The notes below the pieces were generated by a model. The model did no database searches. It worked only from the letters and a program-made list of their open reading frames with translations, and had not been told where the DNA came from. Positions 20,773 through 57,736 of a stretch of DNA of 64,000 nucleotides are shown here, in pieces. The stretch comes from Escherichia coli. Lineage in GTDB: Bacteria; Pseudomonadota; Gammaproteobacteria; Enterobacterales; Enterobacteriaceae. The stretch's first letter is position 1; each line of letters opens with the position of its first letter. The stretch lies in NCBI RefSeq assembly GCF_011045215.1, contig NZ_CP049201.1. One strand, written 5' to 3'. The translations under genes were made by a program, and so were the position numbers.

Positions 20773-20917
20773 ATAATTAATTTGTATCTACAGAATATTA
20801 ATGCTCAGGCTGGTTAACCCCGGCCTTTTTATTTTATATACAGACGTTCCTGTGAGACTATTGACATATAAAAGCCCGTCTTGCTAATCTTTTCCCGCTT
20901 TAATGTCGCTGTATGCG

Positions 20918-21102
20918 ACCATCCAAATCCCCAGTAGTCTGAGAGGGGAGCCTTCGGGCGGCTACCAGCCAATGCTTTAACGATCTGAGAGAAGCGCCTT
21001 CGGGTGATCGTAATGTTCTCGTAGCCTGGAAGAGAACGCCTTACGTGGCGGTACATCCGTTTAACCTCTGGGAACGGATATCACGGAACCGTGATTGAGG
21101 TC
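20918..21102 (+). repeat. Copy A of a ~185-bp structured direct repeat (four predicted hairpins, two with CUUCGG loops)
   Basis: Seen directly: about 88% identical to 23232..23416; contains GAGCC-UUCG-GGC and GCGCC-UUCG-GGUG hairpins plus a 7-bp stem ATCCGTT/AACGGAT. Confidence 0.8.
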
Positions 21103-21232
21103 GTGCTGGCCTGAGGCCAGTTGTTCTATGCAGGCATCCTGCAGATGCCATGATTCTTTACTTACAGGCTTATCACGCCTGCATATCAATACGTTAAGTC
21201 TTTCAGAGACATGTCTGAACGAACTGACGTCT

Positions 21233-21517
21233 TTAATCTGTTCGGGCATTCGCCCCGGGCTTCTTACGACTGTACGCACTGCATAAGGCCATCTGAAATC
21301 TGGCCGCTTGCGTGCGTATGTGGAGTTTGAAGCTGCGCGGCGTCACTTTTGTCGGCGTGTAACGATGACAAAGTGACGCATGCGCGTCTGCTTTACGAAC
21401 CCGCACAAACCGTCGCGTCACGGGATGTTTTTTAACATTTGAAGAAGTGACCAGACGTGAGAGTGTTTTTTCAACCTTCTCTGCAAACGTACAGACGATA
21501 CCGTGAATAACGTTCAT
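21233..21517 (-). CDS. Hypothetical ORF (94 aa), possibly a gene remnant
   Basis: ORF between repeat A and the recombinase; overlaps a second ORF (21061..21279) in another frame, which could indicate a frameshifted pseudogene. Confidence 0.2.
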   Translation of the reverse strand: MNVIHGIVCTFAEKVEKTLSRLVTSSNVKKHPVTRRFVRVRKADAHASLCHRYTPTKVTPRSFKLHIRTQAARFQMALCSAYSRKKPGANARTD

Positions 21518-21762
21518 CGACCGTTCTTCTTGCAGAATTTTATTGTTTTTTAAGGAGTTTTATGTAGTGAGATGCCGAACCGGCGATACCACTTATTAGG
21601 GGTGGTATCGGGGGCGACCTGGAAACAGGTACAGCGAATGCTGCAGTCGGTGTGCAACACCGGTTTGTTACCCCTCAATACCTAAACAGTCTGCGCTACC
21701 CTGGCGCTCAGGCACTCATTACCCGAAGGATCGCAACGCTTAACCGTGTCGCCAGGGAGAAT

Positions 21763-21824
21763 GCAGATGAATTTTGCTGTTGTGTTCACGGCACAACAGC
21801 AAAATTCATCTGCTGTACGTACAG
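21763..21824. promoter_or_regulatory. 22-bp perfect inverted repeat (7-nt spacer) followed by the 12-bp palindrome CTGTACGTACAG, upstream of the recombinase gene
   Basis: Seen directly: GCAGATGAATTTTGCTGTTGTG-TTCACGG-CACAACAGCAAAATTCATCTGC at 21763-21813; the RBS GAGGAGG and GTG start follow about 35 bp later. Confidence 0.6.
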
Positions 21825-21850
21825 CTGTTTAAGACAAAGAGGAGGTATCT

Positions 21851-22753
21851 GTGTCCAGACGTGAAAAATTACTGAAACAGGATTTGGTTGCTCATATCCG
21901 GAAAGACCGGGGGAGTTTCAAGAAGCTGAGTGACTATTCCCGGATCATGCACCGGTTTGCGGAAAGACTGGCTAAACTGAATATACAGATCAGTTCTGCT
22001 GCGCAGGTAAAAGTGCGGCATATTGAATTATATATGAACAGCAGGAGTGATGTTTCAAAGCGAACCAGAGAAAATGAAATGTCTGCAATACGGGTTATGT
22101 TACGTCAGGCCGGTAAACATAAAATGGCAGATCCTGAACATCCCCGTCTCAGCAATAAGGCGTTAGGTATTTCAGGAGGAAGCCGTAAAGGGACAAAGAA
22201 ATTAATTACGGATGAGCGTTTCCGGGAAATTCTTCAGCGCGTGGAAGCAAAAGATAAAGGGGTGGCAGCTGTTGTTAAACTGTCACGTTATCTCGGTCTG
22301 AGAAATGAAGAAGCTGTCCAGTCGGCCAAATCGTTACGGACGTGGAAAAAAGCGTTACAACGGGGAGATGAAAAAATAAGGGTGATTTTTGGTACGAAAG
22401 GGGGACGGGAAAGAATGACGACGGTTGTTGACCGGGATAAAGTTCTTGATGCTGTTAATTACGCACTCAAATATGCCAGTGAGCATAATGAACGTCTGAT
22501 AGACAGAGATAATCTTAAGTCGGCAATGGATTATTATCTTAATACGTTACGACGTTATGGAGAACTGAAAGGCGGAGATGAAACCGCACACAGTTTTCGG
22601 TACAGTTACGCCGCAAGTGCCATGAAATATCATATTATGAATGGTTACAGTTATAAGGAGGCACTTGCACTGACATCAATTGATCTTGGTCATGGTGATG
22701 GCAGAGGTCGATATATTGAACAGGTTTATTGTCAGTTATTAGGCTATGAGTAA
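21851..22753 (+). CDS. Tyrosine site-specific recombinase (phage-integrase family), 300 aa
   Basis: GTG start after RBS GAGGAGG; C-terminal catalytic-like motifs AHSFRYSYAA (H-x-x-R), LGHGDGRG and RYIEQVY (candidate nucleophilic Tyr). Confidence 0.75.
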   Translation: MSRREKLLKQDLVAHIRKDRGSFKKLSDYSRIMHRFAERLAKLNIQISSAAQVKVRHIELYMNSRSDVSKRTRENEMSAIRVMLRQAGKHKMADPEHPRLSNKALGISGGSRKGTKKLITDERFREILQRVEAKDKGVAAVVKLSRYLGLRNEEAVQSAKSLRTWKKALQRGDEKIRVIFGTKGGRERMTTVVDRDKVLDAVNYALKYASEHNERLIDRDNLKSAMDYYLNTLRRYGELKGGDETAHSFRYSYAASAMKYHIMNGYSYKEALALTSIDLGHGDGRGRYIEQVYCQLLGYE

Positions 22754-22785
22754 TAATTTATATCGATTTTGTGTGGGTAAATATC

Positions 22786-23109
22786 ATGGATTGTACTATT
22801 TTAATGAAAATAATCTCTGTAAAGGAGATTACAAAAGATTCGCCTTTGTGGTCACACTACCTGGTGCGATATATTGATTCCGGATATCAGGCTGAGTTTG
22901 AATGTGAAGGAACAGCAGATAAATGGGGCATCTATGATGAATGGGACATCTGTGAGTCGATTGCGGATTATTTTGACGTGGTGGGAGATTTTGACTGTGA
23001 TGTCAGACGGACGGGAAGAATAATACTGATGAAAGGTACCTGTGTTTTTCCTCCAGGAGAACCGGTTAAGGGAACACATAATATTCCTTTTTGGATCGAT
23101 GTTGAATAG
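22786..23109 (+). CDS. Hypothetical acidic protein (about 107 aa) downstream of the recombinase
   Basis: ORF 18 bp after the recombinase stop; Asp/Glu- and Cys-rich; no recognised motif. Start could be the GTG at 22771. Confidence 0.4.
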   Translation: MDCTILMKIISVKEITKDSPLWSHYLVRYIDSGYQAEFECEGTADKWGIYDEWDICESIADYFDVVGDFDCDVRRTGRIILMKGTCVFPPGEPVKGTHNIPFWIDVE

Positions 23110-23155
23110 CTTGACATCCATCTTTTGTGCCTTAAAAATATACAGGCTAACTTTG

Positions 23156-23416
23156 TTACCTTCGGGTGACCATCCAATGTTTCGGTAGTCTGAGAGAAAC
23201 GCCTTCGGGTGACTACAGTTATCTTCGGATAACCATCCAAATCCCCGGTAGTCTGAGAGGGGAGCCTTCGGGCGACTACCAGCCAATGCTTTGACGATCT
23301 GAGAAAAGCGCCTTCGGGTGATCGTAATGTCTCCGTAGCCTGAAAGGGGACGCCTTAGAGGGTGGTACATCCGTTTAACCTCTGGAAACGGATATCACGG
23401 AACAGTGATCGAGGTC
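23156..23416 (+). repeat. Copy B of the ~185-bp structured direct repeat (23232..23416) plus an extra partial unit (23156..23231)
   Basis: Seen directly: aligns with 20918..21102 over its full length with scattered substitutions; the upstream partial duplication repeats the CCATCCAA...GGTAGTCTGAGAG...GCCTTCGGGTG unit. Confidence 0.8.
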
Positions 23417-23488
23417 TTTTATACTTAACCCGTGCGGGAGATACATTCCCGTATGGTGATTGTATCTCCGGTTTTACTGTGGAGGTAC

Positions 23489-23839
23489 ATGATGCCGTTA
23501 TCTTCTTTTGTTCAGGAGTTGCTGGCTCCCTGGTATTCTTTTCGTTCTGTCTGTTGGCGCATTTTTGTGGCTTTTCCGCAACTGCGGGCAACTGTATTGC
23601 GTACCCGCTGGTATCTGTCGTTGACAGGACAACGAGAATATTGCCCCAATGTCTGGTTTGATGGCAGTGTGTACCATTGTGCTGTGTTGGTGCGGGAGTG
23701 TCATGATGCCCGTAAATCAGTACCAAAGGTGCAGTACTATATCCCTGGATACTTTTCTTCATATCGTTCAGCATACCGGACAGCCAGGAGAACGGCGATT
23801 GCGCTGGCGACGATAAAAGTGTCGTGCAGGGCTGTCTGA
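23489..23839 (+). CDS. Hypothetical protein (116 aa)
   Basis: RBS GGAGG upstream of two adjacent ATGs; first gene of a co-oriented block. Confidence 0.4.
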   Translation: MMPLSSFVQELLAPWYSFRSVCWRIFVAFPQLRATVLRTRWYLSLTGQREYCPNVWFDGSVYHCAVLVRECHDARKSVPKVQYYIPGYFSSYRSAYRTARRTAIALATIKVSCRAV

Positions 23840-23948
23840 TTCATTATTACCGAACCGGAGCATCAGCGTTGTTGTGATGCCTCCATCCCCTGACGGGTGT
23901 TTTTGTCCGTCGGGGCGAAGACTCCCGTTTCTTTTTACAGGAGTCTTT

Positions 23949-24323
23949 ATGTCAACGTTTATTTTGTGCCCTGAACCGGGCATCTCTTCTTTTTTCCGGC
24001 GAATGACGGCTCAGTTGCGGGTGTTTTTTTCACGCAATAACCTGTCATATTACAGTCGCTGGTACACCAATCCGGCCGGCAATCTGAGTGTGCGGGTCTG
24101 TATGTTTCGTCGTGGCGGTGTCTGGACACCCTGTCTGTATTACCGGCAGGGAATGCACCGCAACGCGTACACAGGCTGGTATCAGCCGTTACCGCGTGAG
24201 GTCATTTGTCTGAACCGGTTTACCGGGCGGATATCCCGTCGCAGGACCTGGCATGCTGCCTGCCGTATGGCGGAACAACTGACCACCCTGCGTTACCGGT
24301 TTGGTCTGCAGGCTGATGGATGA
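23949..24323 (+). CDS. Hypothetical basic, Arg/Tyr/Trp-rich protein (124 aa)
   Basis: RBS AGGAG upstream of ATG 23949; start adjusted from the ORF track. Confidence 0.45.
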   Translation: MSTFILCPEPGISSFFRRMTAQLRVFFSRNNLSYYSRWYTNPAGNLSVRVCMFRRGGVWTPCLYYRQGMHRNAYTGWYQPLPREVICLNRFTGRISRRRTWHAACRMAEQLTTLRYRFGLQADG

Positions 24324-24427: not shown

Positions 24428-24907
24428 ATGAATAGTCTGTTAATACTCCTTTACGTTGTTGTATGGCGTGTCTGCACCATTCTTCGGGTAATCACACCAG
24501 TGTCGGCTGTCCGTGCGTGGTGTGAGTATCAACTGGAAGGTATGACGATACTTCGTGATGCGTACAGCTCGCTGGCAAAGGCGGCTGGAATGCAGAATGA
24601 AGCATTTGAATATCTTAAAGGTATTGCACGTCATCTGGGCTACGAAAGCGGTGGTGACCAGCTGAAATCAGGACTTTTCCGGCCGTTTCTGTGGCATATA
24701 CGTGCGAAAGGCCACAGGCTGGGGGCTGTCATGGAGATGGAGGTATGGAAGACATGGAAGAACGGCTGTAACGATGTCTGCAATCCATGGAAGGATATCT
24801 ACAATCCATGGGAGCGTGGATGGAACGATGGCTGGACTGAATGTCTGAATCAACGTGTAGCCGGCATCCTGAAGCAGGCCTGTGTTGACTTTTCCGACGC
24901 AGACTGA
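24428..24907 (+). CDS. Hypothetical protein (159 aa) with hydrophobic N-terminus and Trp-rich C-terminus
   Basis: ORF in the co-oriented block; RBS GAGG upstream. Confidence 0.5.
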   Translation: MNSLLILLYVVVWRVCTILRVITPVSAVRAWCEYQLEGMTILRDAYSSLAKAAGMQNEAFEYLKGIARHLGYESGGDQLKSGLFRPFLWHIRAKGHRLGAVMEMEVWKTWKNGCNDVCNPWKDIYNPWERGWNDGWTECLNQRVAGILKQACVDFSDAD

Positions 24908-25012
24908 AGGGTTTTTCTTTTACTTACTGCACCGTGTGTCTGCGCCGGTGCTTTCCCTGGCGGGAGTTTTGTTCCGTCAGGGACAGGACTTCCTGAACAG
25001 ACGGAGGTCATT

Positions 25013-25390: not shown

Positions 25391-25477
25391 TTAATAACCT
25401 GACCCTGACGGGGCGTGCTCTCCGTCAGGAAGGCATTCCCCGTAGTTTATTTTTAATCTGACCATGAGGAATGTTCC

Positions 25478-57561: not shown

Positions 57562-57736
57562 GCAATAACGGTACGACAGCTGTGTCGTGCCGTTTGTTTT
57601 TTCTGCGATAGTCACAAAGGTAATAGTTGAAATTCCCCTGCCACCTGGCAAAATATCCGTTCAACCATCAGCTTTGCAGGACGACCTGCAAACGCGTCTT
57701 TTCACCGGGGACGGCCCCAATTCTCCGGAGCCTGAT

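Follow-up and report, generated by a model that had tools for sequence, protein, structure and literature searches.

In this study, we analyzed a 64,000-nt stretch of Escherichia coli DNA (contig NZ_CP049201.1 of assembly GCF_011045215.1; hereafter the window) in which two copies of a 185-nt direct repeat bracket the gene for a tyrosine recombinase. It is virtually certain from our comparisons that both repeats are arrays of the known STAXI RNA motif, and that they belong to a unit with the order STAXI, block X (a conserved non-coding block), EFASI, Integrase_1, a variable small gene and STAXI, which has a fixed backbone place in MPF_G integrative conjugative elements (ICEs) of Enterobacterales. 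The repeat, the motifs and their order are a rediscovery of catalogued elements in a known type of conjugative element. As to function, our position is that the arrays act as RNA and not as DNA crossover sites. The reading that we favor, while giving it somewhat less than an even chance, is that they serve as promoter-proximal leader RNAs through which the integrase and the next operon are regulated.

A repeat scan and alignment confirmed the presence and coordinates of the pair (20918–21102 and 23232–23416), with 168 of 185 bases identical (90.8%, rather than the 88% of the original prediction). The repeat is built from a sub-unit of ~46 nt that occurs three times in the upstream array (array A) and four times in the downstream one (array B), each 185-bp copy comprising three of these 46-nt units and a two-hairpin tail. 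The unit is an H-type pseudoknot with a 6-bp stem (P1), an apical stem of the form GCC-UUCG-GGY and, on the 5′ side, an internal loop with UGAGAG; a pseudoknot of 5 bp is formed with the 5′ linker. The original prediction had proposed a fold-forming repeat of four consecutive hairpins per copy, of which the folding stands and the plain hairpins give way to pseudoknots; the extra unit that it had called partial in the second copy is complete. Array A spans 20904–21102 and array B 23154–23416, the latter beginning at 23154 and not at 23232, both on the plus strand, where the Rfam STAXI model (RF01728; gathering threshold 40.5 bits) scored 109.7 bits at 20904–21057 and 85.8 bits at 23154–23279. 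Array A, defined by its Rfam match, its units and their covariation, opens with a hairpin (P0, 20904–20919), continues with units at 20920–20965, 20966–21011 and 21012–21054, and ends in the tail (21055–21102), which is supported by covariation and may include an ACCUC/GAGGU pseudoknot. Array B, recognized from its Rfam match and the 91% identity of 23232–23416 to array A, opens with a P0 hairpin and the additional unit B0 (together 23155–23216), followed by a second P0-like hairpin (23218–23233), units B1–B3 (23234–23369) and the tail (23369–23416). C-UUCG-G loops cap two of the three units of array A and three of the four of array B.

STAXI was described by Weinberg et al. (2010, Genome Biol 11:R31, PMC2864571) as a pseudoknot repeated two or three times, found near genes for Ssb, topoisomerase, antirestriction proteins and XerDC-type integrases, with a name reflecting its Ssb, topoisomerase and antirestriction neighbors. 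The same authors raised a single-stranded-DNA role and left the choice between RNA and single-stranded DNA undecided. The window arrays share with that motif the tandem pseudoknot unit, the UUCG loops, an Enterobacterales host and a neighborhood of integrase and antirestriction genes: the Integrase_1 gene lies between the two arrays, a zincin-like metallopeptidase and an N6-methylase lie downstream in the near-identical locus L001, and ArdA lies downstream in locus L090. The structured non-coding RNA family suggested by the original prediction is thus borne out by Rfam, as a family already catalogued, with EFASI between array A and the integrase. There are also differences, none of them essential. 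The Rfam model covers three units and stops at 21057, whereas the window element adds a promoter at fixed distance and a 45-nt two-hairpin tail; the published description is without the conserved pairing of two arrays around an integrase, and array B has four units.

The conservation of this arrangement was determined from 80 loci, one genome per species, retrieved with a profile of 20 Integrase_1 proteins. A closer clade comprises 59 loci (L002–L060) whose integrase is at least 49% identical, and a sister clade the other 21 (L061–L081); array and EFASI counts were checked with Rfam on 26 loci, and EFASI in the closer clade was counted by nhmmer. An upstream STAXI array was found in 58 of the 59 closer-clade loci, the exception (L051) being cut by a contig end, and it usually lies 700–1000 nt ahead of the integrase start (2.0–2.5 kb in L043 and L048). 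EFASI is present in all 59, ending 65–180 nt before the integrase start in 57 and lying ~1.5–1.8 kb upstream of the integrase in L043 and L048. A second array follows the integrase stop by 80–1700 nt in 46 of the 59 loci, and all STAXI unit matches in this clade are on the integrase strand. Across many genera the module occupies one backbone position, a few genes after the TraG-N gene; because that place is fixed, the module is not an independently mobile cassette, and the nested integrative element that had been among the original candidates does not fit it.

The element around the window module was recognized through E. coli 8178, which has a near-identical locus (97.8%) in an MPF_G ICE with TIGR037xx genes, TraD, TraG-N, a TraI relaxase and a second (tyrosine) integrase adjoining tRNA-Phe and yjdC. 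The tRNA-Phe gene that forms the integration end of the ICE in that strain is found at 43426–43498 of the window, on the minus strand. Judged by this sequence correspondence, the host of the window module is a tRNA-Phe-integrated MPF_G conjugative element.

The sister clade has a different composition. EFASI was detected in nine of the ten sister-clade loci scanned with Rfam, and STAXI is absent except in L075 and L078. EFASI thereby tracks Integrase_1 in both clades and is tied to the integrase more tightly than to STAXI. The STAXI slot is taken by a radC RNA motif in L064 (4346–4482) and L069 (4315–4455), and the position after the integrase by a C4 antisense RNA in L078 (5636–5722) and a retron msr RNA in L069 (6169–6234). 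The sister-clade islands with radC, C4 or msr RNAs adjoin tmRNA or tRNA genes.

STAXI and block X also occur without the integrase, with EFASI following in the plasmids where it was detected. The carriers (L082, NZ_CP059920.1, and L083, L084, L085, L086 and L087) are 3–6 kb plasmids of four replicon types, among them a 3.1-kb plasmid with a HUH-type Rep, 5.3-kb plasmids, and Pantoea and Rahnella plasmids (that of Rahnella with a Rop gene), and, besides these, an IncK2/Z plasmid. In L082, which is typed “mobilizable” though it is without a relaxase, STAXI is antisense to rep. A STAXI-X remnant without integrase is found in O157:H7 islands (L091, EDL933), strain TUM9803 has the ICE module together with two small STAXI-X plasmids, and block X plus EFASI matches 577 E. 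coli records. The original prediction had proposed a survey of whether the repeat always accompanies the recombinase; it does not, as the sister integrase clade is largely without STAXI and STAXI-X-EFASI occurs without the integrase.

The recombinase itself (21851–22753, plus strand, 300 aa, pI 10) was identified by its matches to PF12835 (Integrase_1, 1.6e-53) and PF12834 (Phage_int_SAM_2, 9.3e-23). The catalytic residues R151, K183, H247, R250, H281 and Y293 are invariant among 20 homologs. Sequence searches of NCBIfam and PHROGs gave no match, nor did a PDB sequence search with the integrase profile, so a fold search was needed: the AlphaFold model (pLDDT 89.5) matched XerA, the lambda Int core, XerH and Cre in Foldseek, each at probability 1.00. 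The Pfam matches, the catalytic set and the predicted fold all uphold the original assignment to the tyrosine recombinases. The Pfam matches and predicted fold indicate a protein of two domains, without an arm-binding domain. We found no mechanistic study of STAXI, EFASI or PF12835 in the literature.

Ahead of this 900-nt gene lies ~950 nt of conserved, structured non-coding sequence. Its EFASI motif (RF02957) is at 21564–21721 on the plus strand and scored 55.0 bits against a threshold of 51.2 bits; this marginal pass is due to insertions in the window copy. Homologous positions elsewhere score 57–108 bits, and the conserved sequence extends past the motif to ~21760. From the end of array A to the start of EFASI there are ~460 nt (462 nt), and a further 130 nt separate EFASI from the integrase start. 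The name stands for “Enterobacteriaceae, Frequently Around STAXI and Integrases”, and in the Rfam text quoted in PMC12370729 the motif follows STAXI at a few hundred bp and precedes an integrase, which is the order STAXI, EFASI, integrase found in the window. Rfam classes both STAXI and EFASI as small RNA (sRNA) genes. For EFASI it lists a likely trans sRNA; our data are equally compatible with a 5′ leader element. A Shine-Dalgarno (SD)-like AAGGAG stands at 21552–21557 ahead of EFASI, with equivalents 4–10 nt before the first EFASI position in 26 loci of both integrase clades. No usable start codon follows it ahead of EFASI, and EFASI holds a conserved unpaired ACCUC that is anti-SD-like.

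Block X (21260–21460, plus strand) occupies ~200 nt between array A and EFASI and was delimited from a conservation profile and alignments. Its conservation exceeds that of the integrase protein, and it contains indels of lengths not divisible by three. Its hallmark is an inverted repeat, GCGTCACTTT at 21340–21349 and AAAGTGACGC at 21370–21379 in the window, with the consensus GCGTCACTT(T/G)...(A/C)AAGTGACGC, in which nine pairs are invariant and one covaries. The inverted repeat was found in 57 of 59 closer-clade and 15 of 21 sister-clade loci (72/80 in total), often with GUGAAA or GCGAAG in the loop. Block X had no Rfam match at E ≤ 5, and RNAalifold recovered only the invariant 10-bp stem. 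The inverted repeat may fold as an RNA hairpin, or it may be a site for a protein or a relaxase. We considered block X as a candidate origin of transfer on the grounds of its invariant inverted repeat, its occurrence on small plasmids and the typing of one such plasmid as “mobilizable” without a relaxase.

Between EFASI and the integrase ribosome-binding site, the 22-bp perfect palindrome of the original prediction was found at 21763–21813, with a 7-nt spacer, TTCACGG. Long perfect hairpins with another stem sequence and a loop similar to that of the window (GTTCAC-type center) are found at the same place in L020, L029, L044, L047, L050 and L057, and many loci are without one (L006, L014, L023 and L032). 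Such equivalent hairpins suggest an RNase III-type or lox-like element. A lox-like core site with 22-bp arms and a 7-bp spacer cannot be essential, given its absence from the latter four loci.

The evidence for a selected structure in STAXI comes from covariation. Pairing was counted on 54 distinct units, which were chosen by requiring P1 to pair; the pseudoknot played no part in the selection, and therefore only the pseudoknot counts as independent evidence. Overall, 94.3% of cells are paired, with 86.7% in the pseudoknot helix and 97.8% in P1. The original prediction had proposed a check for compensatory changes in the stems, and these were found: 166 cells are changed on both sides, compared with 41 in shuffles (none of 500 reaching 166) and 9–38 when the partner columns were slid. 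Covariation extends to every one of the five pseudoknot pairs and the six P1 pairs. Even the two window copies differ in this manner, unit 3 having GUUCUC/GAGAAC in one and GUCUCC/GGGGAC in the other. A nested minimum-free-energy fold of array A was not better than shuffles on the plus strand (z = −0.97), and the minus strand gave z = −2.36; nested folding is blind to pseudoknots, which makes the energy test uninformative, and support for the structure was therefore taken from covariation.

The same units reveal which strand is under selection. Non-Watson-Crick pairs in the stems are G-U in 68 cases and A-C in two, the unit pattern occurs 66 times on the plus strand and three times on the minus strand, and the apical stem is closed by G-U in 39 of the 54 units. 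Among the 66 units, 50 have a UUCG loop and six a UACG loop. The acceptance of G-U but not A-C pairs indicates that a single strand of fixed polarity, and not duplex DNA, is under selection. The selected structure forms on the strand with the sense of the integrase mRNA and has RNA-type loops. Action as RNA is favored, as far as sequence can tell, by the G-U/A-C asymmetry, the UNCG loops, a fixed promoter and published transcripts.

Each window array is preceded by a sigma-70-type promoter sequence on its own strand. For array A this is TTGACA, 18 nt and TAATCT (20861–20890), the −10 box ending 13 nt before the motif, and for array B it is TTGACA, 17 nt and AAAAAT (23111–23139), with 14 nt between the −10 box and the motif. 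Approximately 30 of 34 arrays from many genera, upstream and downstream ones alike, have a TTGAC-type −35 box 41–43 nt ahead of the first hairpin and a −10 box that ends 12–15 nt ahead of it, and the boxes sit outside the folded part of STAXI. A promoter at this fixed distance would thus make STAXI the first part of a transcript. Consistent with transcription, STAXI transcripts have been reported by strand-specific RNA-seq in Pectobacterium (PMC4710047) and by RNA-seq in the avian pathogenic E. coli (APEC) strain NC22 (PMC11599210), which has the same element variant as the window (match H105). In addition, STAXI was detected by reverse transcription quantitative PCR in vesicles of Shiga toxin-producing E. 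coli (STEC), in which STAXI and EFASI RNAs are reported to be among the most abundant (PMC12370729).

Downstream of the arrays there are hairpins that may end or attenuate transcription. Two terminator-like hairpins, both having weak T-runs, come after array A (21105–21121 and 21133–21149, plus strand). After array B there is a terminator-like hairpin with GGTTTTAC (23437–23475, plus strand), and then directly the ribosome-binding site and ATG of a plus-strand open reading frame (ORF) at 23492. The latter layout is common, as 11 of the 14 downstream arrays examined are followed ~60–110 nt later by a hairpin with a T-run and then by a ribosome-binding site and ATG. With the block X repeat as anchor, 82 sites showed no positionally conserved sigma-70 promoter between STAXI and EFASI; the stretch immediately ahead of EFASI had none either, and no separate one was found for block X, EFASI or the integrase.

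Arrays of one locus are much more alike than random pairs, and in 21 of 45 loci the two arrays are closer to each other than either is to any array from loci with an integrase <85% identical. In other loci, L040 and L041 among them, upstream arrays match upstream arrays and downstream arrays match downstream arrays better than they match each other. E. coli A41 is 97% identical to the window at 21200–23200 and again from 23900 onward, but both of its STAXI bodies are of another type, common to its two arrays, while its promoters stay position-specific. The mosaic breakpoints between the two strains fall at the arrays, near 21200 and 23211. In the window, the 185-bp homology starts exactly at a unit boundary, and array B has the appearance of a first unit of its own to which a copy of array A has been joined. 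From the likeness within loci and the A41 comparison, we regard the bracketing as old and the 91% identity as the outcome of homogenisation, most simply by gene conversion. The original prediction had read the pair as conserved rather than as a recent duplication; this holds for the ancient bracketing, and not for the level of identity.

Under our favored reading, each array would be the first stretch transcribed from its own sigma-70 promoter. Array A would open a structured integrase mRNA leader of ~950 nt, consisting of STAXI, attenuator-like hairpins, block X, EFASI and the long hairpin, and array B would stand at the head of the following operon, made up of small ICE genes, with a terminator just ahead of the first ribosome-binding site. 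The tandem pseudoknots would offer multivalent sites to a single shared factor, which could be a protein or the polymerase transcribing them, and occupancy of the sites would set the transcription or translation passing the downstream hairpins. The integrase and neighboring establishment genes would thereby be co-regulated. Gene conversion, possibly aided by selection to answer the same factor, would keep the two arrays alike.

The layout of the loci fits the class of leader RNAs, in that STAXI is placed by its promoter at the 5′ end of the predicted transcript, and terminators or putative sequestering hairpins lie between STAXI and the co-oriented genes. The equivalence of slots with radC RNA (RF01754) and C4 antisense RNA (RF01695), both described as leader or regulatory RNAs, was counted for the leader reading by analogy. 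Like STAXI, these are promoter-proximal structured RNAs of mobile-element DNA-handling genes, found in the same slots in sister loci; unlike STAXI, they have different folds without tandem pseudoknots. C4 is a leader-derived antisense regulator in phage P1 and is the one of the two with a demonstrated mechanism. Another parallel is offered by putL/putR of HK022 and by EAR, cis-acting processive antitermination RNAs that are promoter-proximal and structured, with two similar copies per element, each heading a terminator-bearing operon. The likeness of STAXI to these RNAs lies in its being promoter-proximal, paired and operon-heading; there is no similarity of sequence or fold, and the occurrence of STAXI on tiny plasmids is unexpected for processive antitermination RNAs.

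Several observations weigh against the leader reading. Co-transcription of array A with the integrase, which we infer along with the common factor and the regulatory outcome, follows solely from the lack of another conserved promoter, and weak or other-sigma promoters would escape such a search. The 3–6 kb plasmids that have STAXI-X-EFASI without an integrase or a downstream operon are easier to reconcile with a self-contained trans-acting RNA, or with a site that works in trans, than with a leader that acts purely in cis. The common factor is a postulate, the terminator-like hairpins past array A have weak T-runs, and the transcript sizes in the Pectobacterium RNA-seq (two adjacent 228-nt windows) may be windowing artefacts.

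A possible alternative, which we rate only a little below the leader reading, is that each array is a stand-alone trans-acting sRNA of ~230–330 nt, whose three or four pseudoknots sequester or scaffold a host or ICE protein in the manner of CsrB or RsmZ. Its position beside the integrase would then reflect co-inheritance and not cis regulation. This agrees with every array having its own promoter and a terminator-like end, with the single-stranded motifs CUGAGAG and CCAAUG being conserved and repeated in each unit, and with the presence of the module on small plasmids of four replicon types where there is nothing to regulate in cis. The abundance of STAXI and EFASI in vesicles (PMC12370729) and the Rfam sRNA labels point the same way. 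CsrB/CsrC and RsmY/RsmZ likewise have a conserved single-stranded motif on repeated stem-loops and paralogous copies per genome, although those sponges present GGA hairpins, not pseudoknots with a CUGAGAG loop. A trans-acting RNA has no need, however, of so strict a placement and orientation with respect to the integrase and EFASI as 58 of 59 loci show, nor of a distance that stays at 800–900 nt; the only conserved promoter found for block X, EFASI and the integrase is that of STAXI; and no partner protein is known. A stand-alone sRNA therefore explains the plasmid copies better than a leader does, but not the rigid position.

We consider it quite improbable that the 185-bp identity is a mere by-product of gene conversion or duplication between paralogous repeats, without functional meaning for the pair. 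The start of the homology at a unit boundary, the resemblance of array B to a first unit plus a copy of array A, and the A41 arrays that are both of another type and yet match each other would all be expected from such a process, and repeats of 200 bp that are 2.3 kb apart are good RecA substrates. The by-product explanation nevertheless accounts for the similarity of the arrays and not for their existence, since bracketing, promoters and covarying structure are conserved across genera, and the position-wise matching in L040 and L041 means that both positions are maintained independently.

It is very unlikely, and suggested by analogy with the HEARO/omega-RNA of IscB and the bridge RNA of IS110, that STAXI (or radC), block X and EFASI form one large structured RNA that assembles into a ribonucleoprotein with Integrase_1, making the latter an RNA-scaffolded or RNA-directed tyrosine recombinase. 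This is allowed by the presence of EFASI in 59 of 59 closer-clade and nine of ten tested sister-clade loci, by the block X repeat in 72 of 80, by the ~950 nt of non-coding sequence per 900-nt gene and by there being no known DNA site for this recombinase family. Were it true, the small STAXI-X-EFASI plasmids would borrow the ICE-encoded enzyme in trans.

Roles of STAXI as single-stranded DNA, in replication or recombination, are improbable even when taken together. The first of them, to which we give equally little credence as to the ribonucleoprotein, would make STAXI a signal that comes into play after conjugative entry or rolling-circle replication, as a single-strand origin, a primosome site or a single-stranded-DNA promoter for a leading region of establishment genes. 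Surroundings resembling a leading region, with ArdA (L090) and the zincin-like metallopeptidase and N6-methylase (L001) co-oriented after the mating-pair genes, would suit such a signal, as would the Ssb, topoisomerase and antirestriction neighbors reflected in the name and the carriage by a 3.1-kb plasmid with a HUH-type Rep. In F-like leading regions, however, the transferred strand is the template for the co-oriented genes. If the same polarity, which is inferential here, applies to these elements, the transferred strand has the complement of STAXI, and there every G-U pair turns into an A-C mismatch. In addition, STAXI is antisense to rep in plasmid L082, and its −35 and −10 boxes are of the duplex type and lie outside the folded part.

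The least probable explanation is that Integrase_1 recombines the arrays, whether these serve as arm-type sites in duplex form or as folded single-stranded DNA in the style of integron attC and CTX-phage attP, and that the integrase cassette is thereby excised or exchanged. It draws on the direct repeats flanking a recombinase gene with an intact catalytic set, on the bracketing kept in 46 of 59 loci with homogenised arrays, on the A41 breakpoints at the arrays and on the single-stranded-DNA role raised in PMC2864571. The attC sites, the CTX-phage attP used by XerCD and the cer/Rcd site of ColE1 are likewise structured, strand-specific elements beside a tyrosine recombinase, and cer further illustrates that one and the same site may serve recombination, give rise to a small RNA and be carried by small plasmids that have no recombinase of their own. 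The recombinase family differs here, being Integrase_1 and not IntI or Xer. Against this, covariation excludes the duplex-DNA reading, the UNCG loops and frequent G-U pairs favor RNA over DNA (an argument made in PMC2864571), each array has a promoter fixed to it, and transcripts are published. When 5,426 complete E. coli genomes were scanned with a synthetic deletion junction made of the left flank, one array and the right flank, 67 of them matched and none as one stretch of at least 80% of the query, a search of low power; no cassette mobility or deletion was observed, and the module is immobile in the backbone. Together with the two-domain recombinase lacking an arm-binding domain, the sister clade largely without STAXI and the integrase-free copies, these results make a crossover or arm-site role unlikely, and the arm-type array or excision module that had been put forward originally is unsupported. 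Two narrower candidates do not fit: an excisable cassette bounded by att- or res-type sites, as no natural deletion junction turned up in this low-power genome scan and the recombinase and STAXI are not always together, and an integron, as Integrase_1 is not of the IntI family, the arrays have their own promoters in the orientation of the gene and there is no cassette variability at a fixed attI.

Other features of the region were also examined. The small acidic protein of the original prediction corresponds to an ORF at 22786–23109 on the plus strand (107 aa, pI 4.45), which is variable cargo between the integrase and array B; it was found only in near-identical E. coli loci and had no Pfam, NCBIfam or PHROG match. 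The other small ORFs around the arrays had no match in NCBIfam, PHROGs or Pfam, except for a function-unknown PHROG for a DUF2726 protein. Small minus-strand ORFs, which the original prediction had mentioned, are probably spurious as genes (20829–21056, 21061–21279 and 21233–21517); their only protein match is in the near-identical E. coli locus, they are not conserved as proteins in related loci, and the DNA is conserved with non-triplet indels. Downstream of array B, small plus-strand ORFs are each preceded by a hairpin of the repeat family CCCTGACGGG...CCGTCGGG (23880–23952, 24955–24981 and 25403–25429). A second stem ahead of them, of the form ...TTTTTACAGGAG...ATG, sequesters the ribosome-binding site, and similar structures are found in other genera. 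A conserved small protein at 23949–24323, with the motif EW(I/F)TN...SF(R/Q)A, a C-terminal LRYRF and no Pfam family, recurs just past the downstream array in L002, L004, L017, L020, L044, L047, L050 and L057. Three tandem 21-nt repeats lie at 24767–24841, within the ORF 24428–24907. A guanidine-II (mini-ykkC) riboswitch (49.3 bits) at 57673–57719 on the plus strand is outside the conjugative element and has no relation to the repeats. In strain AH19B041, the integrase module is present both on a separate record of 17,767 bp (NZ_CP196319.1) and near the start of the chromosome record (NZ_CP196316.1), and the extra record may stem from duplication during assembly, or else from excision or amplification of the segment.

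STAXI has been an orphan motif since 2010 and EFASI since 2017, and the interest of our findings lies there and not in the repeat itself. To what was known of them, the survey adds the conserved bracketing of the integrase, the paired homogenisation of the arrays, the fixed promoters, the unnamed block X and the integrase-free plasmid copies. The gene associations in the name of STAXI may trace to a syntenic block of MPF_G elements; ArdA, an N6-methylase and an ArdC-like protein are encoded nearby. Conjugative elements of this kind disseminate virulence and resistance genes among E. coli, Salmonella, Serratia, Pectobacterium and their relatives. For that reason a regulatory RNA over establishment genes, if true, would be of practical interest, as would a second recombinase that works with an RNA partner.

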